NCBI GenBank assembly: GCA_038141355.1 | Contig: JAYQHX010000002.1 | Location: 1,214,478-1,278,477, forward strand | Length of the DNA: 64,000 nucleotides | Direction: 5' to 3' | DNA from: Methanobacteriota archaeon | GTDB lineage: Archaea; Thermoplasmatota; Poseidoniia; Poseidoniales; Poseidoniaceae | Shown here: positions 32,101 to 48,571 of the stretch, one piece after another | How positions within the stretch are numbered: the stretch's first letter is position 1 | Layout of the letters: the number at the start of each line of letters is the position of its first letter | The notes under the pieces: generated by a model | The model's database searches: none | The model's input: the letters and a program-made list of their open reading frames with translations, nothing else | What the model was told of the DNA's origin: nothing | Program-made: the position numbers and the translations under genes

Positions 32101-32213
32101 GGATGTCTGATCTACGAATGGATGATGATGGAACTGCATGGGCAGAAGACCAAGATGGAAATTGGTACTATCAAGAACCTGGTTCCAGTGATTGGAATGA
32201 ATGGTCTGATTGA
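23153..32213 (+). CDS. Giant surface protein: signal anchor, seven DNRLRE-like/Fn3-like units, Ig-like stalk, C-terminal TM and Trp-rich tail (three indels; ~3020 aa joined)
   Basis: ORFs 23132..23317, 23254..25803, 25646..26029 and 26001..32213 join via -1 (~23305), +1 (~25670) and +1 (~26012) indels. Recurrent D(T/S)xID/VDS..N.N(Y)G starts about every 320-335 aa; TM near 31880-31955. Confidence 0.8.
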
Positions 32214-32246
32214 TTACAGATTAGAGGTCATTAACACAATGGATGG

Positions 32247-34817
32247 ATGAAAGTGAAGAATAGATTCGCTTGCTTTCTAATTTTCATTTTGCTTTCACCT
32301 CTAACAATCGGCCTTGTTTCAGCCAATCCCGCTGCAATAAACATCGAGTCACATCCAACAAGTGTTAGTGCCGACCAAGGAATACAATTTACAGCGATTG
32401 TCACGGACTCGTCAGGTAGCACTATCGATGAGACTGTGTATTGGAGTGCGAGTTCTGGAACAATAGATTCTTCGGGCTTTTTCACGCCTGGACTGGCGGG
32501 TAATGTCAACATCACAGCTAGCGCTGGCGCTGTAAATACTACTACCAGTTTAACAGTAACGAAAGGATGGCCACACTCTATTCAGTCAAACTTTCAATCA
32601 TTAGATGTCAGCGTGGATGACATAGTTCCATTGGATGCATTTTTGCTTGATAGAGCGGGCAATCAACTTGATGAAGATCTAGTTTACAGATGCCAAAACG
32701 GGTTAATTGATTATGAAAATAAAACTTGGTCTCCATCTACAATTGGAAATACTACAATGAGAATAATGTATCAGGAATTAGAGCATCAGGTCCATTTCAA
32801 TGTACAACCGGGTAATGCTAGTTTTATTGAGTTCCCATTAGGATTAACCGTACAAAGTGGATCGACCCTCCATATCAATGTCACCGTTTACGATTCACAT
32901 GGGAATGAGGTCAAACTATCCAATGCAGGCCAACTTTCCTTTGAAGTTGAAAACGGGAGTATCTCAAACACTGGATTATACTACGCCAATGCTCCAGGAA
33001 ATTGGAATCTAAGTGTTAACAGCACCTCAGGTGCCGTGGGACATGGTAGAATCAAAGTACTGCCTGCCCAAGCAACTGGACTTGATATAGAAATTGAAAA
33101 TATGGAAATTAGAGCAGGTTCTACTGTCAATCTTTCAGCGATTAGAACTGATATTTTTGGTAATTCCGGAGAAATCGACCTACCTCTTGCTAACTGGACA
33201 ACTCCATCGGGTACACTAGCAAAGGTTAACCAAACCATTCAATGGACTCCTTCCAGTATTGGCACATGGACGATTGGAGTAGCCGACCAAGGTTATTCAA
33301 CTACAATATCTGTCACAGTGATTCAAGGATTTGCTAACAAAATTGACTTTAGTTTCTCTCAACCGATTTTCAAGTCTGGAGACCTGATTGTAGCCTCGCT
33401 TGCAGTATATGATGCTGCGGGCAACTCTCTCTCTATCGATGGAGCTTGGGATATATCTACGGCGATTTCATCGGTGAACCACGGAACATGGCAAGAATTG
33501 AGACCAGGTCTAATAGGCAACTATACAATCTCAGCAACATGGTTTGATAATGAAACTCAACGGGTTTTCGAAGTTGAAAAATTAATGCATATCGTTGCCG
33601 GTGATCTCGCTAGAATTATTCTTCCCGAGAGTGGGACTCAAGTCGCTTCAGATGATGTACTGAGCATGAATCCACAGTTCGAAGATGAATATGGAAACAC
33701 AGTAGATGGTGTCCTAGTTGATTGGATAATTGAAGATGAAGACATGACTATGTCAATTAGGTTGGCAGGAAATAAATGGGCACCTGATAAATTAGGGATT
33801 CATGAGATAAGAGCAATTTCACAAGGCATTTTCGCGATTACTGAGGTAGAAGTAATTCCAGGAGTAGCAAGACAAATTTTCACTAATTACAATGAGACCA
33901 TCACCATTCAGAGTGGAAAGAAGGTCGAAATTCAAATTTTCACACTAGATGTAAATGGAAACCAAGCAATGGCCAACGATGTAAGTTTTGATTTTGACGA
34001 CCCATCTGGCAAAGTGTCACCATCACCAACAGGAATTGGTTATTGGTATATTGAAGGTGGAATCGAAGGTTCATGGAATCTTAGATTATCAAGCGGCACA
34101 GCAATTGAAGATTTAACCGTAAACATTACCGTTGGAGAAGCAGTTCGTTTAATTGCAGAAATTCCGGAAAAAACACCTGAAGAAGGAGAAGATATGATTA
34201 TCCGTATTTACGGATTAGACCAGGCTGGAAATATAGTTCAAGTACCCTCTACGGAGGTAACCCTTCAATGTACTGCAGGAAGTACAAAACACGTTTCAGA
34301 TGACACATACATCCTTACAATCGATAAAGCAGGACAATCTCAATCTTGTAATGTATTATGGGATGATTTAGTCGCTCAAAGATTCTTTGACGTAGATGCA
34401 GTATTATTTGGTGGAGGATTAGGAAGCACCAACACTGCGCTAACAATGGTTTCCATCATTATTTTGTTATTTGTTGCGATAATGATGGTTTTGATTCGAA
34501 GAATAAGACCCGATACCTCTCGAGAAGATTTGTGGGACGATGAGTATGAAGATGATGTTGAATCAATAGTTGAAGTCGAGTTAAAAAAAGAAACCCCGGT
34601 AATCAAAGAAACAAAAGAACCCGAAACCGTCTCTGTAGAAAAAGAAGAATCGTCCGAGGACATTCGATCTCGCTTAGCAGCAGAAGCTAAGCGAACTGGA
34701 ATCATGCAGGCAGCACCGGGAACTGAACAAGGAAAAACCGGATGGTACATCGATTCTACGGGTGAATTAACTTCATGGCTTGTTGCTGAAGATGGTAGTT
34801 GGACTAAGATGTCTTAG
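32247..34817 (+). CDS. Secreted/membrane-anchored protein with tandem Ig-like repeats, C-terminal TM and Trp-containing tail
   Basis: Signal peptide, repeated (V/Y)DxxGN and GxxA..I motifs, TM LTMVSIIILLFVAIMMVLIRR, tail GWYIDSTGELTSWLVAEDGSW. Confidence 0.8.
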   Translation: MKVKNRFACFLIFILLSPLTIGLVSANPAAINIESHPTSVSADQGIQFTAIVTDSSGSTIDETVYWSASSGTIDSSGFFTPGLAGNVNITASAGAVNTTTSLTVTKGWPHSIQSNFQSLDVSVDDIVPLDAFLLDRAGNQLDEDLVYRCQNGLIDYENKTWSPSTIGNTTMRIMYQELEHQVHFNVQPGNASFIEFPLGLTVQSGSTLHINVTVYDSHGNEVKLSNAGQLSFEVENGSISNTGLYYANAPGNWNLSVNSTSGAVGHGRIKVLPAQATGLDIEIENMEIRAGSTVNLSAIRTDIFGNSGEIDLPLANWTTPSGTLAKVNQTIQWTPSSIGTWTIGVADQGYSTTISVTVIQGFANKIDFSFSQPIFKSGDLIVASLAVYDAAGNSLSIDGAWDISTAISSVNHGTWQELRPGLIGNYTISATWFDNETQRVFEVEKLMHIVAGDLARIILPESGTQVASDDVLSMNPQFEDEYGNTVDGVLVDWIIEDEDMTMSIRLAGNKWAPDKLGIHEIRAISQGIFAITEVEVIPGVARQIFTNYNETITIQSGKKVEIQIFTLDVNGNQAMANDVSFDFDDPSGKVSPSPTGIGYWYIEGGIEGSWNLRLSSGTAIEDLTVNITVGEAVRLIAEIPEKTPEEGEDMIIRIYGLDQAGNIVQVPSTEVTLQCTAGSTKHVSDDTYILTIDKAGQSQSCNVLWDDLVAQRFFDVDAVLFGGGLGSTNTALTMVSIIILLFVAIMMVLIRRIRPDTSREDLWDDEYEDDVESIVEVELKKETPVIKETKEPETVSVEKEESSEDIRSRLAAEAKRTGIMQAAPGTEQGKTGWYIDSTGELTSWLVAEDGSWTKMS

Positions 34818-34819
34818 TC

Positions 34820-36478
34820 TCATTCTTCTTCAGCGATGTGTATAGATGCCAAGAACTGATCAATGTCGATATATCCGTTCGCTTCTTTGTCAACATGGTG
34901 GAAAATATCCCTATATTCATCATTTGTAAAGGTGAAATGTAGTGCTTTTAGAGCAGCAATAAATTCTCTTAATGTTAGGTGATTCTTTCCGCCTAGGTCA
35001 GCGGCGTGGAATGCTGCTTCTCGAATCGTTCTCTGCGTTGGGTCTGATTCAGACAACATTTTCATGAATGTATCAAAAGGAGTTGTTCGAATGTGACTGT
35101 GTTTTACACCATATGAATAATAAGTCACCGCACCAATAATGAACGCAGCAAATGCGCCCAAAATAGCCTTTTGTCCCATCAAATACACAAGATATGTACC
35201 ACTTATTACTCCAAAGATTTGCAACCACGGATAAAGTGGTGATTTATACTTAGGGTGGTACCAGCCATGAGCAAAATTTGCTCTTCTAAGTACTATCACA
35301 CTAATGTTGATTAGAACGAAAACCATAATCTGGAAACCTGAAGCCAGTTTTGCTACATCTTTAACTGGAAGGAGGATAATACATGCAGCCATTGTTAGTG
35401 AAGTGATAATAATGGCCCAATGTGGAGTTTCAAATCTCGCATTAACATCTTCCAATGCTTGAGGTAAGAGATTATCTCTTGACATAGCAAACAAGAATCT
35501 AGAAGAGGCAAGAACTCCTGCTAATGCTCCAGAAATCATTGTCAAAATCGCCAAGATAGCCATGAAAATTCCAATCTTTGTTCCTGCTACGGCATCAACA
35601 AATGCAAAGACAGAATCTTCTCGAGGCTCTCCACCATCGTTTAGCCACCATTCACCCGGAACAGAGGCCATCATTACAAATGTCACAAAACAATACAGTA
35701 ATATTGCCACAGAAAGAGAAATTATAATTCCAGATGGAAGGTTCTTTTCAGGATCCTTAACCTCTCCACCAATTGCTCCTACCTTAATGATACCAGAATA
35801 TGCAATAATGACAAGTGCTGCTGCTTCTCCAAGTAGTAATGGGTCATTCTTCACAACATCGATGGCTCCATTATAAGGAACTGAAAAATCCGTACTTGAA
35901 TCAAACAATTGAACTATACAGATTAAAATCAAGACCGCTACTGTGACAATCAGAATTGGTGATTGTACTTTCTTAATTTTCTTAATTCCATAGATGTTAA
36001 GAATCGTGATAACAAGAAGAGCAACCATCGAAACTAGTAATGTGTCAACAGTGGTATCAAAATAAGTCGTTACCGCGTATAGATAAGCAGTAAATCCAAT
36101 CAACGCAAACGCTGATTTTAATAAAAATGAAGCCCATAAACCCAGACCACTAATCGTACCAATAAGTGGTCCAAAAGTTCTCTCTAAGTAAACATAGGAA
36201 CCACCGCTAGACGGCATTGCAGAACCTAATTCCGACTTTGAAATGGCACCTGGTATAACCACAATTCCTGCCAGCAAAAAAGCCATCCAAATACCGGGCC
36301 CCATTATATCAGCCGTGAATGATGGAAGAACAAATAATCCAGAGCCAATCATTGCTGCAAGTGAAATGATAACTAAACCAGCAAGGTTCAGAGACCGCTC
36401 AATCTTAACCTTCACGTCTTTAACAACAGATTTGATTTCGCCCTTAGCGAGTTGGGATGCAGTTTTTCTCAAATCCAT
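34820..36478 (-). CDS. APC-family amino acid permease fused to a C-terminal EF-hand pair
   Basis: AAMIGSGLFVLP, AELG-like SELGSAMPSSGGSYVY, GEVKDPEKNLP, ~12 TM; C-terminal DLGGKNHLTLRE and DKEANGYIDIDQ loops. Confidence 0.88.
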   Translation of the reverse strand: MDLRKTASQLAKGEIKSVVKDVKVKIERSLNLAGLVIISLAAMIGSGLFVLPSFTADIMGPGIWMAFLLAGIVVIPGAISKSELGSAMPSSGGSYVYLERTFGPLIGTISGLGLWASFLLKSAFALIGFTAYLYAVTTYFDTTVDTLLVSMVALLVITILNIYGIKKIKKVQSPILIVTVAVLILICIVQLFDSSTDFSVPYNGAIDVVKNDPLLLGEAAALVIIAYSGIIKVGAIGGEVKDPEKNLPSGIIISLSVAILLYCFVTFVMMASVPGEWWLNDGGEPREDSVFAFVDAVAGTKIGIFMAILAILTMISGALAGVLASSRFLFAMSRDNLLPQALEDVNARFETPHWAIIITSLTMAACIILLPVKDVAKLASGFQIMVFVLINISVIVLRRANFAHGWYHPKYKSPLYPWLQIFGVISGTYLVYLMGQKAILGAFAAFIIGAVTYYSYGVKHSHIRTTPFDTFMKMLSESDPTQRTIREAAFHAADLGGKNHLTLREFIAALKALHFTFTNDEYRDIFHHVDKEANGYIDIDQFLASIHIAEEE

Positions 36479-36576
36479 AACAAAATCCTCGATTTACTGC
36501 CGTATTCCGACCAACAATTAGCGCCAAAGGTGGAAACTAGTTAGTGGTTTTGCATATTTAAATCGGAAAATGAAAT

Positions 36577-37971
36577 TTATTGTACTCTAGCAATTACCTT
36601 CATCTCAACAGCGATTGGAGTAGGCAATGCACTAATTGCTAATGTCGTGCGAGTGGGTCCTACTTTGCCTAGCGTTTCAGCCCAAACCTCATTGTACCCT
36701 GAGAAATCTCTATCCATATCAACCAAGAAAGATGTCACATCGATGACATTATCGATTGAAGACCCTGCTTCTTCTAATATTCTAGAAATATTTTGGATTA
36801 CGGCATGGGTTTGGGCTTTGATATCATATTCTAGTGGTTTTCCATTAGCATCTTTGATTGGTCCACCTGGTATTGAATTATCACCTGGCTGTCTTGGACC
36901 AACACCTGAAAGATAAATCAAATCACCTTCACGACGAGCATGAGGATAGGCACCCACTGGTTTTGGTGCTTTTTCAGAATTTACTGAATTTTTGGATTCA
37001 ACAGGATCATACAGTTCTGGCCCACTGTTGATACTATTATTTTCTGAGTCGTTATCTGAGTCGAGTACGTCTCTATCTCCTCCGTAGAACTCAACATCAT
37101 CCTCATCATATTCCTTATCTCCTGTTCCATTGGATTCAGGATCTAAAACTACAACAGCGGCTCCTGCACCATGAATTGCCTCGTAAGCTAAAACATCACC
37201 ACTCAAGTCATTTCGATTACTGTTCATTGCTGATAACCACCACATTGGTTTGAATGCGACGACCTTCTTTACTCTAATTTGGTCTTGGATTGTACGGCTT
37301 AATTGACCAACATCCTCGAGCCTTCCTTTTCCTAAGAATTCGAGAATTTTTCTATTCCATTCATCGTCTTTCAAAGAGTGAATTCGATCTTCATGAGGCT
37401 CGATTGGTTCAGTAAACATCCTGTTTGAAAGGGACATAACAGATACAGCAACCGCTTTCTTACCTTGAGATTTGATAACGTCAAGGCAGGATTTTGCGAG
37501 AACCGTGGTCTCTGCTCTATTTGAATAAACATTGCTTGAACAAATAACGGCAGGAATTCGATTGTCTGGATTCAATAATTGCAGAGCAACGACAGAACCG
37601 ACATCTATCGGGAACCCTTCATAGGCAACTGTTCGTGATTGCAAACCGCGAGAAATATTTGCATCATTCCAAGCATGCGCAAACTCACTATCGATGTTTA
37701 GTGAGTAATGGATACTGCCTAAATCGTGGAAATCCGCATCCACTAAAACCCATTTAGGATTAGGATCCGCCTGAATTTGGTGTCCAATGATACTAGGCCA
37801 AAGCGTTGAATAAATCACAATCAAATCAGCATCTGATTCTTCAATTTGCCTCTTTGCTTCATCGTAAGCATCTCTTATTCTCTGCCAACCTTCGTTTTTT
37901 TCAGGGCACAAAACAGGGTGAGGATGAGCCGGAACAATTAGCGATTTTACAATCTCTCCAGTCATAGTCAC
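36577..37971 (-). CDS. amnA: 2-aminophenol 1,6-dioxygenase alpha-subunit-like domain fused to a RidA/YjgF (2-aminomuconate deaminase-like) domain
   Basis: N-domain YSTLW, GFPIDVGS, SSNVY, EDRI..DDEWNR matches my recall of the LigB-like alpha subunit. C-domain PVGAYPHARR, LSGVGP, PTRTT, LPTPIAVEMKVIA is Rid-family. GTG start overlaps the amnB stop. Confidence 0.82.
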   Translation of the reverse strand: MTMTGEIVKSLIVPAHPHPVLCPEKNEGWQRIRDAYDEAKRQIEESDADLIVIYSTLWPSIIGHQIQADPNPKWVLVDADFHDLGSIHYSLNIDSEFAHAWNDANISRGLQSRTVAYEGFPIDVGSVVALQLLNPDNRIPAVICSSNVYSNRAETTVLAKSCLDVIKSQGKKAVAVSVMSLSNRMFTEPIEPHEDRIHSLKDDEWNRKILEFLGKGRLEDVGQLSRTIQDQIRVKKVVAFKPMWWLSAMNSNRNDLSGDVLAYEAIHGAGAAVVVLDPESNGTGDKEYDEDDVEFYGGDRDVLDSDNDSENNSINSGPELYDPVESKNSVNSEKAPKPVGAYPHARREGDLIYLSGVGPRQPGDNSIPGGPIKDANGKPLEYDIKAQTHAVIQNISRILEEAGSSIDNVIDVTSFLVDMDRDFSGYNEVWAETLGKVGPTRTTLAISALPTPIAVEMKVIARVQ

Positions 37972-38861
37972 TCACCCCATTCACTTACAGGCCACTCCAT
38001 AATCGCATTACCTGTTCCAATGATTGTCCCATAGCCATGCAATTTCGCTGGTTGGTTAGGAATTCCTAATGTAGATAACAACCATGTTAGAGCGCCACCA
38101 TCGGTCTCAGCAATCGCTTGTTCACAAAATTCTGGCATCTCGTCGATTATCTGTTGTGATTTCCCATTTCTCATCAATTCAATCATTCGCATATCCCAAA
38201 GATGCATTGCGTGGCTAGTGATATGTTCTTTACTCATGTCTTCAGGAGGGTTTGTTTCTGAAACAAAGTGCCTGTGAGATAAGGAATTGCTAGCTACTAG
38301 TAAGCACTTCTTACCGCTTGCCTCAATCGCCTTCGCGGTCGATTTTCCAAGTTCGAGCATCATTTCTTGCATTACTTCAACCGAATAATAATGCATACCT
38401 CTGTTAGAAGATAATGCAACGATTGGTTTATCCCATTCAGGACGAATCATGTGGCAGGAAACAATTGTCCCATAATCTACTCTGAAATCAGGATTTTCCA
38501 TCATTTTGACAGCCAGACCGTCTGATTTAGCCTGGTCATGAATTGATTTAGCCAATTCAACATCGACTGTCAAGTCATAGTTGTATCTGAAAAGGTTGGG
38601 AAAAATAGGGTCCACGCTTTTGGATTGAAATTTTTCAATACCAAGGAAATGAGTTCCAATGTAGGTTTGCCAATGTGGAGACATTATCACAATAACATCA
38701 TAATCGATGTCTTTAATTGATTCTCGCAATCTTTCATAGCCCCATCTCAATTGCTCCCAACCACCTTCTGAAGTTGGCTCATTTTGGGTAGGATTCTCTG
38801 CATAAACGAGGTGCGGAGGATGTGGAGCGAGACATGCTGCTACAATGCTACCTTTCGCCAT
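37968..38861 (-). CDS. amnB: 2-aminophenol 1,6-dioxygenase beta (catalytic) subunit
   Basis: APHPPHLVYAENP.QNEP, GGWEQLRWGYER, SPHW, SVDPIFPNLFRY, FRVDYGT, SLSH, AE, YGTIIGTGNAIMEW are near-identical to my recall of AmnB/CnbCb, with Fe-ligand His/His/Glu retained. Start placed at MAKGSIV. Confidence 0.92.
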   Translation of the reverse strand: MAKGSIVAACLAPHPPHLVYAENPTQNEPTSEGGWEQLRWGYERLRESIKDIDYDVIVIMSPHWQTYIGTHFLGIEKFQSKSVDPIFPNLFRYNYDLTVDVELAKSIHDQAKSDGLAVKMMENPDFRVDYGTIVSCHMIRPEWDKPIVALSSNRGMHYYSVEVMQEMMLELGKSTAKAIEASGKKCLLVASNSLSHRHFVSETNPPEDMSKEHITSHAMHLWDMRMIELMRNGKSQQIIDEMPEFCEQAIAETDGGALTWLLSTLGIPNQPAKLHGYGTIIGTGNAIMEWPVSEWGE

Positions 38862-38916
38862 GAGACTGCGACAAGGTTCCGCACCTTCTATCATTCGCTT
38901 CCTCGTGGCGGTGAAC

Positions 38917-39324
38917 ATGGGGGACAAAACAGACCTCAAATTCCGGCATGTATTGTGGCCAACATTGTTAGCTGTAGTCTTAATTTCAATTTGTGCAGCA
39001 ACATTGGAAATTCACAGATTTCCTCCGATGATATTGTGCCTTGTGGTGGCGGTTCTTTTCGCACCATTATTAGCCAAATTAACCAATGCCGGTGAAATGA
39101 AAGAACACGCTATTGGAGTGGCATTGGTTTGCATACCGATGGCAGTTGTTTGGTCACTTGGTTCAAATTACTTCAATATCGCAATTCCGTTTATGGCTTG
39201 GGTTTGGCAATCAGCTTCTTGGTCCAAATCAAATCAACCTCCGATAAAATACGGGGTTTGGCACGGATTTGGCATAGCGTTTGCGATAATACCTGGCGCT
39301 ATGCTGTACGAGGCCCTATTCTAG
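38917..39324 (+). CDS. Small hypothetical membrane protein (~4 TM)
   Basis: GGTGA SD-like site before ATG 38917; hydrophobic throughout. Confidence 0.6.
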
Positions 39325-40136
39325 TAAGATTCCTCATCATTTGGAAAATCTTTTGACCGTACATCCGAGCAATATTGCTCTACTGCGTTTGTTATCTGAT
39401 TCTCTAAATCAAGATACCTTCTCAAAAATCTTGGGCTAAAATCAGTAGTAATTCCAAGCATGTCGTGGAGAACCAATACCTGACCATCACAATCAGGACC
39501 TGCCCCGATACCTATTGTTGGGATTGATATTGATTCACTAACCTTTTTCGCTAAATGCGCTGGTATCTTCTCCAATACAATAGCAAAACAACCAGCCTCC
39601 TCCAATACCTTGGCATCGGAAATTAACTTTTCAGCCTCTTCTTCTTCTTTGGCACGAACTGAATATGTTCCAAATTTGTAAATTGATTGAGGGGTTAATC
39701 CCAAGTGACCCATCACTGGAATACCAGCGGTTAGGATTCTCTCGATGCTTCCAACGATTTCTGTTCCGCCTTCTAATTTGACAGCGTGGCCATTTGATTC
39801 TTTCATTATTCTGATGGCACTTTCCAATGCAATTGCAGAATTTCCTTGGTATGATCCAAATGGCATGTCAACCACTATCAAAGCCCTATCGACTGCTCTT
39901 TCTACACATTGAGCATGATAGATCATATGGTCAAGGCTCATTGGGACTGTTGTATCCCTACCTGCCATTACATTAGAGGCTGAATCTCCGACTAGAATTA
40001 CATCTACGCCGCCTCTATCAACTAGTTTTGCAAGACTGTAATCATATGCTGTAAGCATAGTGATTTTTTCACCAGCACGCTTCATTTCCTGAAGCGTATG
40101 GGTCGTGACTTTCTTGGCTTGCCCATGAACGGACAT
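39321..40136 (-). CDS. panB: 3-methyl-2-oxobutanoate hydroxymethyltransferase
   Basis: [55 protein letters not shown]. Confidence 0.97.
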
Positions 40137-40187
40137 AGTTATTCCACGAGTGTTGCCGTTTTGAATCCCTCGCTACGATGAATTTAA

Positions 40188-40907
40188 TCAAATTTCAATT
40201 ACATCTAACTGTTCTAGTAGCATATCATAGAGTGATTGTTCATCATCACATTCAAGCATTTGGTATCGAATTTCAGGATCGCTAACAGTCATTGCAGCGA
40301 TTGTGTAAATAGCATTGGGATTGTTATACATAATTACAGAGATTTGATTCTCTATCCAGTCATCAAAAATGGAGTTATCCAATCGTAGAAGTTTACCGAT
40401 TTTTGACAAGATTTTTCGGAGAATTTCTTCTAACTCATCTAATTTGTTATCAGATAAAAACATCTCATCTTCAATATATTCAACACTGGCTGAAATGTAC
40501 AACTTACTGTTTGCACTATCTTCAGGTATTTTGCTAAGTATTGTCTCTAAGTCAGGGAAAATACCCTCTTCGGGAATGATGTCCAACATCGATTCATCAC
40601 TAAATGGAGGTAGTGCAGGTGAGTTGACAGACTTGATTTGAAACCTTCTGCGACCGATAATTTCGATAAAGTGGTTTGACCCTTTTGTCTCATGATGAAC
40701 AATCTCTGCTTCACAACCAAACTTTCTTGGAGAATCCCATCCGTTAATTTTCGAAAAATCATCGTTCAAAATCAATCCAAAATTTTTCTCATCAAGGAGG
40801 CAGTCATCTAACATTTGTTTGTACCTAGGCTCAAAAATTCTCAACTGTTGAACCTCACCTGGCATCAGAATCATCGGAAGAACAAACAAGGGTAGTTCTT
40901 CTGACAT
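40188..40907 (-). CDS. Stand-alone LON peptidase substrate-binding (N-terminal) domain protein
   Basis: LPLFVLPMILMPGE..LRIFEPRYKQML..C, FGL, GC.AEI, IIGRRRFQI; no ATPase or protease domain. Confidence 0.85.
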   Translation of the reverse strand: MSEELPLFVLPMILMPGEVQQLRIFEPRYKQMLDDCLLDEKNFGLILNDDFSKINGWDSPRKFGCEAEIVHHETKGSNHFIEIIGRRRFQIKSVNSPALPPFSDESMLDIIPEEGIFPDLETILSKIPEDSANSKLYISASVEYIEDEMFLSDNKLDELEEILRKILSKIGKLLRLDNSIFDDWIENQISVIMYNNPNAIYTIAAMTVSDPEIRYQMLECDDEQSLYDMLLEQLDVIEI

Positions 40908-40931
40908 GGGTTTAGATTACTCGCTATTACT

Positions 40932-40939
40932 TTTGAACC
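40932..40939 (-). promoter_or_regulatory. Candidate core promoter element GGTTCAAA
   Basis: 32 nt upstream of ATG 40907. Confidence 0.5.
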
Positions 40940-40947
40940 TGTGTTCA

Positions 40948-42324
40948 TCAGTTCTTTACACAAATATTGCTAAACTCGGAAAAAAAGTCTACTGACCATT
41001 GTCCGCCTTCTCTACCTACTCCGGAATTTTTGACTCCTCCAAACGGCGTACGTAAGTCACGATGAAGCCAGGTATTGACCCAAATTACTCCAGATTCGAT
41101 TTGTTTTGCAACGTCAAATCCCCTACTTTTTGACCATACGCTACCGGACAAACCATACTCTGTGCAGTTAGCAATTTCAATCGCTTCACTATCAGTATTG
41201 AAACGGTGAACTGTGACTACAGGTCCAAAAATTTCTTCGGTTGCAGTTCGGGATTCATGGGAAATATTTGTGATAACCGTTGGCTGAATCCATGCTCCAT
41301 CCCTGTCTATGATATTCCCTCCATACAATATTTCACCCCCTTCTTGTTTTGCCAGTTTTATGTATGAATGCACCTTGTCTCTATGCTGTTTATTGATTAC
41401 TGGACCGATTTCAAATTCTTGTAATCCTTCCAAGTATTCCTTCATGAATTGTTCATAAATTGAGTCATGTACTAAAACCCTAGAACCACACAAACATATC
41501 TGTCCTGAATTTAGGAAAGAGGACCTGATTACACCTGGAACAGCGATTTCTAAATCAGCATCATCAAGTACTATGGCTGCATTCTTACCACCTAATTCTA
41601 GGCTTAATTTCTTAAACATTGGAGCTGCAGTTGCTGCGACTATTTTCCCTGTTGCCGTGCCGCCAGTAAAGGATATTGCCTTGATTTTTGGGTGTTCAAC
41701 AATTGCCTGTCCGACTTCTGGTCCGTATCCATGCACAATATTCAAAACGCCTTCTGGGAGACCAATTTGAATAGAAATTTTCGCCAAAAAGAATGCAGTT
41801 AATGGTGTCAACTCACTCGGTTTAGCGATTACAGTGTTTCCCATCAATAGAGCAGGTGCTATTTTCCAAGAAAGAAGGTATAGAGGTAAATTCCAAGGGG
41901 AGATTAGACCGACAATACCAACTGGTTTTCTCACTACCAAATTTGTCGCATCGCTCATGTCAAACCTTTTTTCTTCAATTCCTTTACCAAATTCTGCAAA
42001 AAATCTGAAATTGTAAACTGAGCGATTAGCATCGACATTGAGCGCAACCTCGTGAGGTTTTCCAGTATCAAGACTTTCAAGTCTAGCGATCTCTTCGATT
42101 TCTTCTTCTAAGGCATCGGCGATTTTTTCCAACCAAATACACCTTTCTTCAATACTGAGATTTGACCAGGTGGGTAGAGCTTTTTCCGCTGCCATTACCG
42201 CATCTTCTACTGATTTTGTCCGAGGTATACTTGCAATAATACTATCATCTAAAGGAGAAATGTCGTCGAATGTTTCTTCAGTTCTTACAAAACAACCTCC
42301 GACCAGATTCTGGACTTCAATCAT
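40948..42324 (-). CDS. Aldehyde dehydrogenase, 2-aminomuconate/2-hydroxymuconate semialdehyde dehydrogenase (AmnC/ALDH8-like)
   Basis: PWNLPLYLLSWKIAPAL, FTGGT, SLELGGKN, GQICLCGSR, EEIFGPV, RDLRTPFGG. Confidence 0.88.
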   Translation of the reverse strand: MIEVQNLVGGCFVRTEETFDDISPLDDSIIASIPRTKSVEDAVMAAEKALPTWSNLSIEERCIWLEKIADALEEEIEEIARLESLDTGKPHEVALNVDANRSVYNFRFFAEFGKGIEEKRFDMSDATNLVVRKPVGIVGLISPWNLPLYLLSWKIAPALLMGNTVIAKPSELTPLTAFFLAKISIQIGLPEGVLNIVHGYGPEVGQAIVEHPKIKAISFTGGTATGKIVAATAAPMFKKLSLELGGKNAAIVLDDADLEIAVPGVIRSSFLNSGQICLCGSRVLVHDSIYEQFMKEYLEGLQEFEIGPVINKQHRDKVHSYIKLAKQEGGEILYGGNIIDRDGAWIQPTVITNISHESRTATEEIFGPVVTVHRFNTDSEAIEIANCTEYGLSGSVWSKSRGFDVAKQIESGVIWVNTWLHRDLRTPFGGVKNSGVGREGGQWSVDFFSEFSNICVKN

Positions 42325-43436
42325 AAGTCCACCTCATACAGCCATCTATCCTTGTCTGGGTCCCATTCATCCCATGTTGGTATCGTCTTCAGAACTTCAT
42401 GTAGGTTAGATGGAACAATTCCTGGTACTATGAACGCTTTTTGACGATGGAGAGGGTAAGGATTCCTCAGTTCAATACCTAAGCATCCCAAAATGGCTCT
42501 CGCAAGATACCAAGTGGCCTGAGAATTCCAGCCGTGTGCGATTTTCACCACAATTCCTAGTCCGTTTGGATAATCAGGATGTTCAACGGCTAGACCAAGC
42601 AGTCCATCAGCGCCTTCTTTGGCAATTACTTTCCCATTACCAATTTTCAATATAGTCGAGTCTAATCTATTGAATCCGCCTACTAGATCAGGATGTTTGC
42701 ACATTGCTTCCCAAATCCAGTCTGAATCCTTGTCTCGGACCAGACCAGCATAAATCTTGGCTAATTCAGCCACAGTATTGGATACTGTAGGTAATCCACA
42801 TCCATCTTTTGCGATTCTGAGTGGACTCCAATCTTCTCCCAAAAAGCGCCTAAGTTGTGCAATATAGGCCTTGAATACCTCATGAGTTGGTAGAGTATAA
42901 CCTGCCCTATTCCAACCTTTTGCTCTGCATCCGGCAAGTATTGCTGCGTGTTCACCACTACATGTGTGATACCATCTTCTTGGCCTCCTTACCTGCCTAC
43001 CAAATTGGACTAATGGCACGTCAAGAGGAGTCAACATCAGAGGCCATTCGGCTTCATTTAGCAATGATTGGGCTGCTGCAACGTGCTCTGTATCGCCATT
43101 GTGACTTGCAACAGCGATAGCCTTCTGCTCCCAAGAGCAATGATTCAATTCATCGGTGAATGCTTTCAACATGAATGGCTTCATCATTGAACGACCATAA
43201 CACAAAACATTGCCGCCAAAAGAATGGATTACTTCATCGCCGTGACACCATGCTACTGCGCCGTGAATCGTAGTTTCTGAAACACCATTTCTTCGATAAT
43301 CGACAAGTGGTTCCCATTCAACATCTCTGCCGGTAGGAATTCCTTCGATATCCTCTCCCAAGGGAGAATTTGGGAATACTTCAGAACCAGGTCTTCCCGG
43401 TGCTACCGCTGAATTTCCATCGTGATTTAATCCCAC
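42321..43436 (-). CDS. L-asparaginase II (class 3, Rhizobium-type) family amidohydrolase
   Basis: RSMMKP, ASHNG, TCSGEH, DGCGLP, AKEGADG; stop overlaps the ALDH start. Confidence 0.82.
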   Translation of the reverse strand: MGLNHDGNSAVAPGRPGSEVFPNSPLGEDIEGIPTGRDVEWEPLVDYRRNGVSETTIHGAVAWCHGDEVIHSFGGNVLCYGRSMMKPFMLKAFTDELNHCSWEQKAIAVASHNGDTEHVAAAQSLLNEAEWPLMLTPLDVPLVQFGRQVRRPRRWYHTCSGEHAAILAGCRAKGWNRAGYTLPTHEVFKAYIAQLRRFLGEDWSPLRIAKDGCGLPTVSNTVAELAKIYAGLVRDKDSDWIWEAMCKHPDLVGGFNRLDSTILKIGNGKVIAKEGADGLLGLAVEHPDYPNGLGIVVKIAHGWNSQATWYLARAILGCLGIELRNPYPLHRQKAFIVPGIVPSNLHEVLKTIPTWDEWDPDKDRWLYEVDL

Positions 43437-43438
43437 AT

Positions 43439-44653
43439 TCAGACCTCCAAAAGGGGTACAACTTCATTCCACCAAGCTTCCATGTTGCGAATTACACGTT
43501 CATTGTCATGATTAAAGAAATCAAACCAGCACATTAGCCTATCATCTGGATGGAATCTTTCCCTAACCTGATTTGCGACTTCTTGTGGATTTCCAATAAG
43601 TGCATTATTGGCTGCTTTTTCGACTTTTGTGGGATCGAGTGTACCCTCCAATGCCTTCCAATACTCACCAAGAGCAAGTCTTGCTTCTTCCTTAGCGGCA
43701 GCAGATTGTTCATCTGGTGAGAGGCCATCCTCGGCATTCAAGAAAACGAATGTTGTTCTAGGCATATCTCTCCTCTGCCAATCACCACCATCACTATGGA
43801 ACACCTGTTTCATTCTTTCATGAGTTGAATCAATGATTTCAGGAGAGGTTATTGACAGATTGAAAACCTTCACTGGTAAGAACTGATTTACAAATTCCTG
43901 TGCTCTAGGGTCGTGGGTTCCAGCCACTAATTCTAATCTGTCTCGTGGCCAGTCCTTTGGTACAGTTGAAATTTCTTCAAATTCATATCTTCTTGAGATT
44001 TCTATATGCTCCGAATCTTTACCTGCTGCAGATTGAACAGAAAGCCAATCCTCATCTGTTCTGAAATTGTCTCGCGTCAATACAGTTTCCCTAATATCGT
44101 TAGAATGAATTGTGTCACCTCGAAGTAACTCGAAGGAATATTTCACTTGCTTCCATGAAAATTTGTCCACGTAAAGCAGGCCATGCCGCTTTTTCGATTT
44201 CATTTCTTGGAACTATGCCATATGGCTTTGCCATGAATTCGAATCTACCTGCACTGAATCCGACATGCAATTTTCTATTATCATCAAAAAAGAGAGGTAT
44301 TGAACTGTATTCGCAATCCTCTCTGCAAGAGCCACAGGCCCTCCTCCAGCGAGAATACTTACAACTGCTGAACCTACATCAATATTGGAAGTTCGCCTAA
44401 ATGATTCCAATGCGAGTTGACAAAAATCAGTACAAAGACCTACTTCTCCTTTCCAATGGGGAACCACAGGATTACTGTTCAATTGTTGAGTCACTGTAGA
44501 AAGATGTGATTGTGCAATCCATGCAACTCCGAAACCGAGTCTATCCGCCGCTTCTAATTGAGAAAAATAATTTGAGAACATTTCTGTTTCACTTGGCGTG
44601 AAGCCATTGTGGTCTGGAGTTTGAGAAATCGAGAAGAAAATGTCAAACTCCAT
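43439..44653 (-). CDS. Luciferase-like (LLM) flavin-dependent monooxygenase (compensating -1/+1 indels; ~404 aa)
   Basis: AADRLGF..AWIAQSH, GSAV, P..LAERI, LHVGFSAGRF (alternate frame ~44135-44290), LIGNPQEV. The two ORFs are in the same frame and are bridged by an open alternate frame. Confidence 0.82.
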
Positions 44654-44698
44654 AGGATGCCTCCATCACTCGGACTAAGAGCCAATGTATCAATATCA

Positions 44699-45487
44699 CT
44701 ATGATTCGGTAAGTTTTGCAATTCGCTGTTTTACTAAGTCAGGAACGATTTCTCCTTCTTCCATGAATTTAGTCATGATATCTGAAAGTTGAACCATTGC
44801 TTCATCAGGTTGGTCTGAAATTTCCGCTAAGTCCGCAAGACCCCACTTGGCAACTAATATTCCCGATAATTCGTTCAATTGAATTGCCAAATCGAGAGAT
44901 TCTATCAACAGATTTTGGGCATCTTCTAATTCTCCAACTGTTGCGTGTATGTGGGCTAAGTCTGCTAGTGCCTCCATTCTCTCAAAAGATTCCTTTTCTG
45001 GAATAATTTCCAATCTTTTCTTGAGATGCATTTTACTTTCATCAAACTTTTCTTCCTCTTTTGCAATATGAGCTAAAAGTGCATGACCATAGATCATTCC
45101 TTCGAGGTCGTCCACTTCTTCCCTGAGTCTCATTGAACGATTAGCGAAAGACATGGCCTCGTCGGTTCCGAGCGACATTAGTGCAGCATGATGAAAAATA
45201 CCTGCTGCAAGACCTTTCAGTCCTTCACTTTCGCTTGCCATTCCCAAACCGATTATTTCCTCCCTAGGACTATTTTGATGTTTCATTAATTCAAATTGGC
45301 ACCATCCTTGTTCTTCTGCATCGCTTGCTACTTTTACAGCGTGGTCGAGCAACCTCGTGACCAAATAATCACGACCTAGTTCCCGTGCTAACTCACTTAG
45401 ATGTAGTGCCAAACTAGTATTCATTGCTTCCATTCCTTCGCCTTCAGCAAACATTTCTAGCAATTCTTCAGCCTTCTGTTGACTCAT
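44699..45487 (-). CDS. TPR-like helical repeat protein
   Basis: Repeated helical patterns such as ALADLAHIHATVGELEDAQNLLIESL and A..GLADLAE. Start placed at MSQQK. Confidence 0.6.
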   Translation of the reverse strand: MSQQKAEELLEMFAEGEGMEAMNTSLALHLSELARELGRDYLVTRLLDHAVKVASDAEEQGWCQFELMKHQNSPREEIIGLGMASESEGLKGLAAGIFHHAALMSLGTDEAMSFANRSMRLREEVDDLEGMIYGHALLAHIAKEEEKFDESKMHLKKRLEIIPEKESFERMEALADLAHIHATVGELEDAQNLLIESLDLAIQLNELSGILVAKWGLADLAEISDQPDEAMVQLSDIMTKFMEEGEIVPDLVKQRIAKLTES

Positions 45488-45506
45488 TTCTGTCAAAATA
45501 ATCACC

Positions 45507-46292
45507 TTAGATTGAACGTAATCTACCGCCATCAACAGCAAGCGAAACTCCTCGAATTGCTCCAGAAATTGGCATGCAGAGATAAGTGATTGCAGCAGCT
45601 GTTTCAAGTGGATCTATCAATCTACCAATTGGTACTTGGGAAATCCAACCATCGTGGATTTCATCTATACTTTTCCCAGTTCTGGCATTGATGGAATTAG
45701 CTAGTGATTCTAGCCTGTCCGTATCAGTAAATCCAGGTAAGACGTTGTTAATCGTAATACATTTTGGTAATTCACTGGAGAGCGATTTTGCCCAAGAGGC
45801 CATTGCTCCTCGGAGAGTATTAGATAAACCGATATTTGGAATTGGTTCTTTCACCGAAGTTGAAATAATGTTTACGATTCTGCCCATACCAGATTTTTCC
45901 ATCAAGGGTACAACACCTTTGGTTAATTGATGTGAAGCATGTAAATGACGCTTGAAAGGTGTGAGGAAATCTTCAGTGGAATTATCGAGAAGTGGACCGC
46001 CTGGAGGACCTGCTGCATTGTTGATAAGTATGTCACAATTTTCAATTGAAGAAATAAAATTACCAATTGCTTTTTCATCTTCTAAATCGAGGCTTATTTC
46101 ACTGTGTCCCTCTCCTTCAAAAGAGTTTGAAACACCATTTGGATTCCGACTTATTGCAGTCACTTTTGCTCCTGCCTTTGCCAGCATTTGTGCTGTAGCT
46201 TTCCCTATTCCTTTTGATGCTCCACACACAATTGCATGCTTGCCATCTAGTGCATTTATCGCAAATGGAAAGTCGTTTCCTAGCCAGTCCAT
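45507..46292 (-). CDS. SDR family oxidoreductase
   Basis: CGASKGIG, INNAAGP, RIVNIIST, SNTLR in place of YxxxK, NNVLPG, VDGG. Confidence 0.9.
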   Translation of the reverse strand: MDWLGNDFPFAINALDGKHAIVCGASKGIGKATAQMLAKAGAKVTAISRNPNGVSNSFEGEGHSEISLDLEDEKAIGNFISSIENCDILINNAAGPPGGPLLDNSTEDFLTPFKRHLHASHQLTKGVVPLMEKSGMGRIVNIISTSVKEPIPNIGLSNTLRGAMASWAKSLSSELPKCITINNVLPGFTDTDRLESLANSINARTGKSIDEIHDGWISQVPIGRLIDPLETAAAITYLCMPISGAIRGVSLAVDGGRLRSI

Positions 46293-46315
46293 GCATAGCC
46301 TAGATGAGTGATACA

Positions 46316-46323
46316 TTTGAACC
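46316..46323 (-). promoter_or_regulatory. Candidate core promoter element GGTTCAAA preceded by GTGAA
   Basis: 31 nt upstream of the SDR ATG at 46292. Confidence 0.5.
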
Positions 46324-46324
46324 T

Positions 46325-47080
46325 TCACAGCCAATCTTTGATGGCCTCTATCTGCGATAACCAATCATCACTTGCTACATCGATAATCGAATAGTGGTCA
46401 CCTGGCAACCATAATTTTTGGACCGATACTCCTTTCGCATTCATAGCCCGAACATATGATTCGGATTGAGTCCAAGGAACATCTGCGTCAGATTTTCCGT
46501 GGATTACCAAAACCGATGTCTTGGCAGGCATATCAATTGGATTAATACTTCTCCAAATCGATTCGTTTTCCTCAGGTGGGCAACCAATCCATCTTCTGAC
46601 AGCATCACCTTCGTCGGACAATTTAGCATGGTCGGCAGCAACCAGGTCACTTATCGGTGATTGTGCAATTGCAAGCCATGGTTTTCTTTCTGCTACAGCC
46701 GACATTAGCAAGGCTAAGTGGCCACCAGCGGAGTGGCCCATAATCATCGATCGTACAATATCTATTCCAGGAAGTAAAGCAAGTTGCCCCCAAGCTCGCA
46801 TGATATCTGAAAGTGTATCTTGCCAAACACCTTCGTCTCCATCTTCCCATCTCTTGTATTCAACATTCCAGGCTGCAATTCCGTTATCGGCCAATTCTTC
46901 TGCGATTGGAGCCATCAATTCCAAACCGTATTTTTTCTTCCAAAATCCGCCATGAATTAGCATTATACAAGGTATGCCTTCGTCTTTTTGAAAATCAGAT
47001 GGCTCATCTGGCATGTACAAATCTGCAAATTGCCATTCCTCTGCACCCCACTGCATGCGGTCTACTGACAATTTGATCAA
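46325..47080 (-). CDS. Alpha/beta hydrolase (HSL/arylformamidase-like)
   Basis: LIHGGFW oxyanion loop, GHSAGGH nucleophile elbow, HGKSDADVP, GDH. Confidence 0.85.
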   Translation of the reverse strand: MIKLSVDRMQWGAEEWQFADLYMPDEPSDFQKDEGIPCIMLIHGGFWKKKYGLELMAPIAEELADNGIAAWNVEYKRWEDGDEGVWQDTLSDIMRAWGQLALLPGIDIVRSMIMGHSAGGHLALLMSAVAERKPWLAIAQSPISDLVAADHAKLSDEGDAVRRWIGCPPEENESIWRSINPIDMPAKTSVLVIHGKSDADVPWTQSESYVRAMNAKGVSVQKLWLPGDHYSIIDVASDDWLSQIEAIKDWL

Positions 47081-47081
47081 C

Positions 47082-48487
47082 TCAAGGAGTGACTCGGCTT
47101 CTATCTCTCGGGAATAGAACTGTTTCTCTTACATTTCTAGAACCAGTCAGGACCATCAACAATCTAGCCACACCTAATCCCCAACCAGCGTGAGGAGGCG
47201 CTCCATATCGGAAACCATCGGTATAGAAAGTGAACCCTTCAGGGTCAAGACCTTTGTTTCGCAGATTTTGTTCGAGAATATCCACATTATGTTCTCTCTG
47301 GCCACCGCTTGTCATTTCGTCCCTACCATAATTTAGGTCAAAACCTCTGGACAACTGTTCGCCTGTTGTTCCAACCTCGCCTTCAACGTGGTGTATGTAG
47401 AATGGTTTCATCTCCATTGGCCACCTTGGTATGAAATGGAAACCAGGGTATTGCGCAGCAATAATATCACAGTGGGAGGAATCAATATCATCTCCCCAAG
47501 AAATTTCTTCACCTGCATCCTGAATCATTTTGATTGCATCACAGTATGAAATTCTTGGAAAAGGTAAACTTGGCACATCCACGGAAATAGGTTCGTCGCC
47601 TTGAGATTCACGGTATCTATTAATCGCTTCAACCTGTTCTTGGTCGTGTTCTGCTACCATTTTCCAAATGTGGTGAATCATTCTTTCTTGGACTCCCATC
47701 ACGTCTTCATCACTCATCCAAGCACCTTCAATATCGAAAGAAATGAATTCGTTCAAATGTCTGTACGTGTCGTGTTTTTCAGCTCTGAATGCTGGACCTA
47801 TCTCAAAACTCTTTCCATTCCACCAAGAACTGTAAGTTGCTTGTACAGTTGTGGGCTTTGTGATAAAAAGGCAGGAGTGTCAAAATACATCATTGGGAAA
47901 AGATTAGTTCCACCTTCTGATGCTGAAGCAATAATTTTTGGAGAATTGATTTCTTTGAATCCTTCTGTAATCAGATGCTCTCTCCCATATTGCAGTACCC
48001 TTGCTCGCAATGTAAACATTGCATTTACGTGCTCTCTTCTTAGGTCTAGGAACCTATTGTCTAATCTGGTATCCAAACCGATTGACACCGTATCGGTGAC
48101 GCCCAATGGCAATGGAGTATTTGCTTTTGATAATATTTGAACTTCTTTGCTACTACCTCGTATGACGGGGGGTACTGGTTCACCTTCAGGTACCTTAGGA
48201 GGTCTCTTTTCTGCGACTTCTCCTACGACTTGAATGGTTGATTCTCTGGACAGTGTTTGAGCAGTATCCAATTCTTCATCAGATACCATTCCTTCTTTCA
48301 AGAATACCTGAACTTTGCCTGTACCGTCTCTGATATCGATGAAACAAATTTTTCCTTTTCCTCTGTTTGCTTCCATAAATCCACAGATAGTGACATCTCT
48401 GCCGACAAGTTGTCCTCCATTGTTTTGTATTTCACCAAGAGTATGCGTTCTGTAGGCTGTCGGATGCCATGTGATATCATTCGCCAT
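47082..48487 (-). CDS. aspS: Aspartate--tRNA ligase, archaeal type (-1 indel at ~47805; probable hidden +1/-1 pair at ~48147-48172)
   Basis: OB fold FIDIRDG, RLDNRFLDLR, LSQSPQLYKQ, FRAEKHDTYRHLNEF (after frame repair), SGGQREH, GAPPHAGWGLG. Confidence 0.94.
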
Positions 48488-48571
48488 GTTTGAGGGCGGT
48501 AGTATTTACAAAATGAACTCATCGCTGGTGAAAACACAGTCTTGATAGATGATTAATTGTGGCGCTTTATC

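Follow-up and report, generated by a model that had tools for sequence, protein, structure and literature searches.

A conserved gene set of Marine Group II archaea predicted to degrade tryptophan through 2-aminophenol

Gene content of the locus

We analysed a 64,000-nt stretch of archaeal DNA (contig JAYQHX010000002.1, positions 1,214,478 to 1,278,477 of the forward strand; hereafter 'the window') from a Poseidoniaceae (Marine Group IIa, MGIIa) assembly, GCA_038141355.1, which comprises 2.46 Mb on 54 contigs and places the window on a 1.53-Mb contig. Eleven genes, all on the minus strand, span 34820–47080 of the window and include homologues of both subunits of 2-aminophenol 1,6-dioxygenase, AmnB and AmnA. 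As judged from the sequences, this region is probably the MGIIa version of a conserved catabolic pathway leading from tryptophan to 2-aminophenol. Its core set most likely consists of an atypical short-chain dehydrogenase/reductase (SDR), a luciferase-like monooxygenase (LLM), a class-3 asparaginase homologue, an aldehyde dehydrogenase (ALDH) of the 2-aminomuconate semialdehyde dehydrogenase (AMSDH) type, AmnB, AmnA and a RidA-family deaminase, with tryptophan 2,3-dioxygenase (TDO) as a partner encoded elsewhere in the genome. All core genes are single-copy in this genome. A sequence-only reading of the window had described the same run of genes, and all of those it named are present, with the difference that the LLM reads as two frameshifted open reading frames (ORFs). 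The stop/start overlaps that it reported are both 4 nt long and lie between the asparaginase and ALDH genes (42321–42324) and between amnB and amnA (37968–37971).

AmnB is of the LigB type and occupies 37968–38861; its ORF reaches 38939, and homology begins at the ATG at 38861. Among solved structures it matched the beta subunits of 2-aminophenol 1,6-dioxygenases (8ihg_A, 3.3e-112 and 54% identity; 3vsg_B, 9e-108). The iron ligands His40, His89 and Glu278 align with His13, His62 and Glu251 of the Comamonas enzyme CtAPD, and Tyr156 and His222 with its second-sphere residues Tyr129 and His195, whose roles have been described (PMC5291488). Given the 54% identity to 8ihg_A, AmnB is likely to cleave 2-aminophenol between C1 and C6. 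The adjoining AmnA::RidA fusion (36577–37971) begins with the paralogous, non-catalytic alpha subunit, which matched 3vsg_A at 1.2e-39 and, by inspection, has Leu at the position of His62 and no Glu at that of Glu251. An acidic linker joins it to a RidA-family domain (PF01042, 8e-25), for which the best solved match was the 2-aminomuconate deaminase 6izh (6e-26). This domain keeps the carboxylate-binding Arg in a PTRTT motif and scored 84.6 against TIGR00004, under the cut-off of 106.

The AmnC/NbaE-like ALDH (40948–42324) has 4npi and 4i1w as its best solved relatives (E 1e-129). Comparison with both showed that the equivalents of Cys302, Glu268, Arg120 and Arg464 (4i1w numbering) are kept, the first two of which we take to be catalytic and the last two to bind the substrate carboxylate in AMSDH. 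The NCBIfam equivalog TIGR03216 was its best family at 505.9 bits, under the 693-bit cut-off, which marks the protein as an apparently divergent member of the 2-aminomuconate/2-hydroxymuconate semialdehyde dehydrogenase family. Homology thus supports a lower half of the pathway in which ring opening of 2-aminophenol (or of a closely similar compound) by AmnBA would give 2-aminomuconate semialdehyde, the ALDH would convert this to 2-aminomuconate, and the RidA domain would yield 4-oxalocrotonate (2-oxohex-3-enedioate) and ammonia.

The LLM, a highly divergent luciferase-like flavin monooxygenase (43439–44653), is split into ORFs at 44213–44653 and 43439–44203 by two compensating frameshifts, which leave ∼54 codons out of frame, with an in-frame TAG at 44213–44215. 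It is a single intact ORF of 404–420 aa in 20 of the 20 relatives examined, and contigs of the same species (P0122, P0123) carry it intact; 90% of the C-terminal ORF in the window aligns with them, at 100% identity. The neighbouring genes for AspRS (47082–48487) and MetK (48557–49799) are likewise split by frameshifts and are single ORFs in relatives, and a geranylgeranyl reductase gene (G000:C2:987591-988790) runs through four frame segments. Because these genes are broken alike and the relatives are intact, the breaks in the LLM are most likely indel errors of the assembly. A pseudogene, or a gene recoded at the in-frame TAG, was ruled out by the double frameshift together with the intact same-species copies. 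The assembly is rated 79.7% complete; it probably contains many indel errors, which would also depress this estimate.

The LLM family is tiny, with 317 representatives at E ≤ 1e-3 and 68 at E ≤ 1e-30 among 1.84 billion proteins. The fragment in the window scored 21.6 against PF00296, under the cut-off of 27.9, because of the frameshifts. Modelled with AF2 (pLDDT 84.9), the intact protein of the same species adopts a luciferase-like fold, and a Foldseek search of the PDB with this model placed luciferases on top (E 1e-14), the structural neighbours comprising luciferases, the OX domain of a polyketide synthase and the type II Baeyer–Villiger enzyme 3,6-diketocamphane monooxygenase. The LLM therefore shares its predicted fold with the type II LLM-fold Baeyer–Villiger enzymes (4uwm/5aec) and with LuxAB (1luc/3fgc); unlike diketocamphane monooxygenase and LuxAB, it belongs to a small separate family with no detectable sequence match to any solved structure. 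A jakobid eukaryote, Andalucia godoyi, encodes a 1501-aa protein (P0245) in which an N-terminus 46% identical to the LLM precedes GATase and ApbE (FMN transferase) domains.

The asparaginase homologue (Asparaginase_II, PF06089 at 9.8e-49; 42321–43436) is the most conserved member of the set, with 82–88% identity within Poseidoniaceae and 69–76% in other archaeal lineages. It shares its fold family with the class 3 L-asparaginases ReAV and ReAIV of Rhizobium etli (PF06089; 7os3, 8cly), from which it differs in its low similarity (E 1e-15 to 1e-17). It keeps two Cys and both Ser-Lys tandems of ReAV (Ser48-Lys51 and Ser80-Lys263), the aligned residues being found in RSMMK, in the Ser of ASH and in the Lys of KEGADG; the roles of the tandems and the enzymes themselves have been described (PMC12292245, PMC8602277).

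The SDR (45507–46364, with a probable true start near 46292; PF13561 at 2.7e-32) is atypical in that the YxxxK motif is replaced by an invariant S-N-T-L-R, S181, N182 and R185 being invariant in the alignment. It adjoins the LLM gene in 21 of the 28 archaeal loci in which the block containing the ALDH is whole, is separated from it by one tetratricopeptide-repeat (TPR) gene in seven Poseidoniaceae loci and, in family f29, lies across the cluster from it.

Conservation and association with tryptophan dioxygenase

Conservation of the neighbourhood, proposed as a check by the sequence-only reading, was pronounced: AmnB was detected in 144 of 151 Poseidoniales genomes, representing all 22 genera, and an orthologous ALDH (53–80% identity) in 147 of the 151. 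Gene order was compared in 29 loci from 20 of the 22 genera. Two blocks proved invariant, namely SDR-LLM-asparaginase-ALDH and amnB-amnA-RidA, the latter usually with an amino acid-polyamine-organocation (APC) permease gene after it; each block was seen in loci from 19 genera, and the two together cover 20. Poseidoniaceae, family f2 and some genera of Marine Group IIb (MGIIb) have the blocks side by side; in small MGIIb genomes, >100 kb separates them. RidA is encoded separately from amnA, with translational coupling, in some MGIIb and in Marine Group III (MGIII); the overlap was seen in one MGIIb genus. This arrangement is far beyond chance, since the same order recurs in 29 loci from 20 genera and in further lineages.

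The genes also co-occur, as that reading had expected. Across 251 Thermoplasmatota genomes, with asparaginase orthologues defined as at least 69% identical, AmnB and the asparaginase homologue were both present in 57, each was found alone in one, and 192 had neither, so that the two share 57 of the 59 genomes having either. Outside Poseidoniales, they were found in families f4, f29 and f31. Family f4, which we take as MGIII, includes four genomes with both genes and three with neither. The flanks of the f29 and f31 clusters are mostly unannotated or spurious ORFs of GC-rich DNA, with a MaoC/HpcH pair in f31.

In the genome studied here, TDO is encoded at G000:C2:450699-451778 (PF03301 match at 450720–451715, 2e-63). 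The gene was present in 31 of 31 relatives tested and in 58 of the 59 Thermoplasmatota genomes carrying AmnB or the asparaginase homologue. In other lineages, the association is physical. MGIII has a single operon with 4-bp overlaps in the order TDO-SDR-LLM-asparaginase-ALDH-amnB-amnA-RidA. In f29, a gene for the kynurenine formamidase KynB (Cyclase) lies between amnA::RidA and the SDR gene, and in the four f29 loci holding TDO this gene is located 0.4 to 1.8 kb upstream of the LLM gene. Both blocks are joined in one operon in f29, f31, MGIII and bacteria. The last gene of the MGIII operon (locus L061, 4251–5060), with a start that overlaps the stop of RidA, encodes a Formyl_trans_N protein of 269 aa that could handle formate released from N-formylkynurenine.

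The bacterial contexts are loci of distant LLM members, 31–48% identical to the archaeal protein, on contigs of several kinds, some of them named Bdellovibrionota or Pseudomonadota. One (L073) has the LLM gene followed by an asparaginase::KynB fusion, with TDO alongside; another (L076) has translationally coupled TDO-asparaginase-LLM genes; in L075 and a JGI contig, the LLM gene is followed by that for the asparaginase homologue. The most complete is an operon (L080) of the order amnB-amnA-RidA-ALDH-FAA_hydrolase-(254 aa)-LLM-asparaginase::KynB, with TDO 2 kb off, and a Bdellovibrionaceae locus (L077) holds the same gene set within 12.4 kb, TDO being no more than 3 kb distant in either case. 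Both of these operons carry a pair of FAA_hydrolase genes. Among the genes called in the bacterial loci, we found no member of the families of kynurenine 3-monooxygenase (KMO), kynureninase, 3-hydroxyanthranilate 3,4-dioxygenase (3-HAO) or 2-amino-3-carboxymuconate semialdehyde (ACMS) decarboxylase (ACMSD). TDO, formamidase, LLM, asparaginase homologue, AmnBA, ALDH and RidA thus travel together across two domains of life.

Asparaginase::KynB fusions were found in ∼90 bacterial protein clusters, which one source annotates simply as 'arylformamidase'. RidA::KynB (Cyclase) fusions exist as well (P0493, P0495; L078, 324–1409) and appear to constitute a second Rosetta-stone link, here between kynurenine formamidase and the deaminase step. 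The contig of one of them also encodes AmnB and an asparaginase orthologue of 73% identity.

Two bacterial loci suggest other uses of these genes. L076 (Logan SRR10168895, 2014–14940) appears to be a biosynthetic cluster around TDO-asparaginase-LLM, with genes for an alpha/beta hydrolase, AMP-binding, PALP, DUF1611, MR_MLE epimerase and acyl-CoA-dehydrogenase-like proteins, an acetyltransferase and an MFS transporter; its module may supply an aminophenol building block instead of serving catabolism. In L071 (Micromonosporaceae, GCA_053747735.1, 1–14400), a 47–48% identical LLM is encoded beside PrnB and tryptophan synthase (TrpA/TrpB), and 8 kb away is a gene for TDO with microcompartment shell genes (BMC, EutN) on its flanks. 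Such an arrangement may connect the actinobacterial 'ARO' microcompartment, whose description makes no mention of tryptophan or kynurenine (PMC10470539), with one of these compounds.

The remaining enzymes of the kynurenine pathway were sought in this genome and 30 relatives. 3-HAO (PF06052) was above the cut-off in none of the 31 genomes, with only weak matches below it. Kynureninase (TIGR01814) was likewise found in none, this genome giving no match at E ≤ 0.001 and the relatives scoring no higher than 51 bits where the cut-off is 246, and KynB (PF04199) was above its cut-off in 0 of 31. Among the FAD_binding_3 (PF01494) matches in the genome no KMO was found, no KMO-specific model having been run: the two best loci were rejected as geranylgeranyl reductases, a third (C9:79084) matches geranylgeranyl reductase at 25% identity, and the other matches listed cover the N-terminal FAD motif only. 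The pair of 4-oxalocrotonate decarboxylase and 2-oxopent-4-enoate hydratase (two FAA_hydrolase proteins of ∼260 aa) is also missing from the genome, which has one FAA_hydrolase gene, with an open frame of 194 aa, on another contig.

Of the genes for which the sequence-only reading had suggested a genome search, kynA (TDO) was therefore present, kynU and nbaC (3-HAO) were not found above the cut-offs, and no kmo was found. Its central proposal, that AmnAB takes the place of 3-HAO and ACMSD in a natural route for aromatic amines or tryptophan, is supported in its tryptophan form by the lack of 3-HAO matches above the cut-off in all 31 genomes and by the clustering of TDO in relatives; ACMSD was not searched for and, since 3-HAO was not found, would have no substrate. 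For the same reason, a full 3-HAO/ACMSD route elsewhere in the genome, which that reading had named as a competing source of the ALDH, SDR and RidA genes, is excluded as their explanation. The rewiring appears to begin at kynurenine, and not only at 3-hydroxyanthranilate, because kynureninase and KynB are absent and no KMO was found.

A proposed route from tryptophan to 2-aminophenol and its alternatives

TDO would convert tryptophan to N-formylkynurenine, a step supported by homology, and a formamidase would release kynurenine, for which the alpha/beta hydrolase encoded at the upstream end of the gene run is perhaps used here and KynB in other lineages. The LLM, with reduced flavin and O2, would then carry out a Baeyer–Villiger reaction on kynurenine (or N-formylkynurenine), placing an oxygen atom between the ketone and the aryl ring. 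The product would be the beta-(2-aminophenyl) ester of aspartate or, after an O-to-N acyl shift, N4-(2-hydroxyphenyl)asparagine, and the asparaginase homologue would split this beta-aspartyl aminophenol product into L-aspartate and 2-aminophenol, the substrate of the lower half. At the far end, the atypical SDR might reduce the C6 enedioate toward 2-oxoadipate, or alternatively act as a flavin reductase. Reduction of the enedioate is suggested by the position of the SDR gene in archaea, which is the place taken in the bacterial operons by the two FAA_hydrolase genes; the SDR would then stand in for the pair of decarboxylase and hydratase found in the bacterial versions. Such a route needs no KMO, kynureninase, 3-HAO or ACMSD.

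The LLM and the asparaginase homologue are the only conserved candidates for the gap between kynurenine and 2-aminophenol, and must bridge it if the pathway is as proposed. Luciferase and the diketocamphane monooxygenases, which have the LLM fold, attack carbonyls with a flavin peroxide. Because kynurenine is an aryl ketone and enzymes of this fold attack carbonyls, we suggest that the LLM acts as a Baeyer–Villiger oxygenase; an enzyme of the asparaginase fold would be well suited to cleaving the beta-aspartyl compound that results from aryl migration. A third exit from kynurenine beside kynureninase and KMO, with this oxygenation followed by an asparaginase-fold hydrolase that liberates L-aspartate and 2-aminophenol, is our tentative proposal for the upper half. 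Free asparagine is an unlikely substrate for the asparaginase homologue, as its gene always accompanies that of the LLM, and in bacteria the protein is part of a fusion with kynurenine formamidase. An analogy with the Rut pathway (RutA, an LLM; an amidohydrolase; RutC, a RidA protein; RutD, a hydrolase) was considered and rejected, the LLM having no RutA match and the RidA domain being closer to 2-aminomuconate deaminase. Full-text literature searches returned no description of such a route in Marine Group II (MGII) or any other organism, and the main MGII comparative-genomics papers make no mention of tryptophan, aromatic compounds, dioxygenases, aminobenzoate or asparaginase.

Several observations weigh against this interpretation. 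The Baeyer–Villiger and beta-aspartyl-hydrolase steps are argued from family-typical chemistry and by elimination. F420-dependent enzymes and SsuD scored like the other structural neighbours of the LLM, with TM-scores of 0.5–0.66 for all of them, so the fold search confirms the predicted family but cannot discriminate Baeyer–Villiger oxygenation from other LLM reactions; no flavin reductase partner of the LLM was identified either. The zinc site of the asparaginase homologue is altered, in that Cys135 and Cys189 are kept but the zinc ligand Lys138 is replaced by Glu (CSGEH), and one MGIII orthologue is without both Cys. The SDR is without the catalytic Tyr. TDO is unlinked here, ∼800 kb from the cluster and with nothing pathway-related in its neighbourhood. 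No recognised formamidase was found in this genome, and the alpha/beta hydrolase gave no match at E ≤ 0.001 to solved kynurenine formamidases. Finally, the negative result for KMO comes from the FAD_binding_3 matches and not from a KMO-specific model, so that a KMO gene may have escaped notice.

The best-surviving alternative stays closer to the canonical pathway: the LLM would hydroxylate kynurenine at C3 as KMO does, AmnBA would cleave 3-hydroxykynurenine or 3-hydroxyanthranilate, and the asparaginase homologue would be an arylformamidase or another amidase. The clustering of TDO with these genes fits such a scheme, both proposed ring-cleavage substrates are themselves o-aminophenols, and some hydrolase must deformylate N-formylkynurenine in Poseidoniales, which are without KynB. 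However, KynB stands beside the asparaginase homologue in f29 and is fused to it in bacteria, and the homologue would therefore have a second, distinct role. Furthermore, neither a kynureninase nor a decarboxylase is at hand for removing the side chain or the carboxyl group, and AmnB is 54% identical to true 2-aminophenol dioxygenases with the same active-site residues. Aromatic hydroxylation is also unusual for LLM enzymes. On balance, we consider this scheme unlikely.

We regard as clearly improbable that the genes serve the catabolism of an external aromatic amine or aminophenol with no relation to tryptophan, such as a marine natural product, a nitroarene or aniline derivative or an N-aryl amide, which would be taken up by the APC permease and from which the LLM and the amidase would release 2-aminophenol. 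The characterised AmnBA systems do serve nitrobenzene and 2-aminophenol degradation (PMC3790839, PMC4539516), the permease gene adjoins amnA, and the distance of TDO in this genome would be expected. Yet an entire order of streamlined planktonic archaea has these genes in its core, TDO and/or KynB are found in or beside the cluster in MGIII, f29 and several bacteria, and the annotated loci contain no nitroreductase or hydroxylaminobenzene mutase. Least probable of all, and by a reading to which we give hardly any weight, the two blocks would be unrelated modules that are merely syntenic in MGIIa, one for other amide or aldehyde metabolism and the other for a separate ring cleavage; their wide separation in small MGIIb genomes would allow this, but the near-perfect match of presence and absence over the 251 genomes with joint losses within f4, the direct joining of the blocks in MGIII, f29, f31 and bacteria, and the AMSDH type of the first block's ALDH, which needs the product of the second, all argue against it.

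Neighbouring genes, related systems and significance

Of the cluster envisaged by the sequence-only reading, the SDR, LLM, asparaginase homologue, ALDH, AmnB and AmnA-RidA hold as a core, whereas its TPR-like, LON-N and panB genes are lineage-specific insertions or reflect synteny and are not pathway members; nor is the alpha/beta hydrolase gene a core gene. The latter (46325–47080; BD-FAE/Peptidase_S9-like, PF20434 at 4e-19) encodes HGG and GHSAG motifs, as read in the translation, and its best solved relative is a carboxylesterase (1e-18). It may be an arylformamidase or aryl-esterase. Of the cluster loci examined, six of the eight from Poseidoniaceae have it and all others lack it; a 27% identical homologue is encoded in the bacterial cluster L076. 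The TPR-repeat gene (44699–45607; weak TPR_MalT/TPR_12 matches) is specific to Poseidoniaceae, no counterpart occurring in the clusters of MGIIb, MGIII, f29/f31 or bacteria. The stand-alone LON N-terminal (substrate-binding) domain protein (40188–40907; PF02190 at 2.6e-20) is encoded in only three of 20 Poseidoniales loci (genera g11, g12 and g15), and is absent from the same-genus locus L024. The panB gene (39321–40136; PF02548 at 4.5e-116), encoding ketopantoate hydroxymethyltransferase, lies on opposite sides of amnBA in MGIIa and MGIIb, and the clusters of MGIII, f29 and bacteria lack it.

The APC permease (34820–36478; PF13520 at 1e-43) has a C-terminal EF-hand pair (4e-8); we know of no other APC-type transporter with such a calcium-binding tail. 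Its gene lies 0.04–2.5 kb downstream of amnA in 16 of 20 Poseidoniales loci; the clusters of MGIII, f29 and bacteria do not include it. From this synteny, it is possibly the substrate importer.

Beyond the permease gene, two adjacent, very large ORFs of 2070 and 856 aa (26001–34817) probably encode surface proteins. The 856-aa ORF gave weak Big_2, Invasin_D3 and MG2 matches, and ten of the Poseidoniales loci examined, including eight from Poseidoniaceae, have a homologue of it beside the cluster. Elsewhere in the window, a 130-nt tRNA match (Rfam RF00005, 47.7 bits; 20978–21107) is long enough for an intron, as expected in an archaeon, and MetK is of the bacterial/eukaryotic type (S-AdoMet_synt_N/M/C), not the archaeal one. 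A scan for bacterial sigma-70 promoters and terminators gave no enrichment and is not meaningful for an archaeon.

The closest known counterparts of the lower half are the amn/cnb clusters, namely amnBACD of Pseudomonas sp. AP-3 and Burkholderia xenovorans LB400 and cnbCaCb/cnbZ of Comamonas CNB-1. Shared with these are a two-subunit LigB dioxygenase with the same iron ligands and second-sphere residues, an AMSDH-type ALDH, a RidA-type deaminase and the order of reactions from 2-aminophenol to 4-oxalocrotonate, which for the archaeal genes is predicted from homology. In contrast to the amn/cnb clusters, the archaeal genes belong to the core of an order rather than to the accessory genome, AmnA is fused to the deaminase, and the cluster is without genes for 4-oxalocrotonate decarboxylase, hydratase and aldolase. 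Its companions also differ, being the LLM, the asparaginase homologue, the SDR and, in relatives, TDO and KynB instead of nitroarene-reducing genes.

With the kynurenine pathway of bacteria and eukaryotes (kynA, kynB, kmo, kynU, nbaC, nbaD, nbaE, nbaF), the proposed route would share its start, TDO, and its end, AMSDH and a RidA-type deaminase, but not the steps between. The substrate cleaved is probably 2-aminophenol, so that no ACMS would be formed and hence no branch to quinolinate and NAD. The logic of the upper half recalls the 4-hydroxyacetophenone pathway of Pseudomonas fluorescens ACB, in which an aryl ketone is turned into an aryl ester by a Baeyer–Villiger monooxygenase (hapA) and into a phenol by an esterase (hapB), followed by a two-subunit ring-cleavage dioxygenase (hapCD), a semialdehyde dehydrogenase (hapE) and a reductase (hapF). 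There, the oxygenase is a type I FAD enzyme acting with an esterase, whereas proteins of the LLM and asparaginase folds would take these roles here; the substrate here would be an amino acid, and the acyl fragment released would be aspartate. In the literature searched, we found no described counterpart of the upper half, the lower half being of the amn/cnb type.

According to the literature, MGII are the most abundant archaea of ocean surface waters and degrade peptides and proteins. If the pathway exists as proposed, a tryptophan route that is core to the whole order would bear on the turnover of marine dissolved organic nitrogen, and the same route would be present in part of MGIII and in Bdellovibrionota-like bacteria. 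It would constitute a branch of tryptophan catabolism independent of kynureninase and KMO. It would also assign functions to two orphan subfamilies, the tiny LLM clade and the Asparaginase_II homologues, including the ∼90 clusters fused to KynB. The steps past 2-aminomuconate are poorly known in eukaryotes too (bioRxiv 10.64898/2026.06.05.730449), and the archaeal SDR may bear on them. Finally, 2-aminophenol would be a central natural metabolite and its dioxygenases would gain their first natural, non-xenobiotic role, and the 'xenobiotic' amn-type genes would represent the ancestral lower half of a pathway for tryptophan that belongs to the MGII core.

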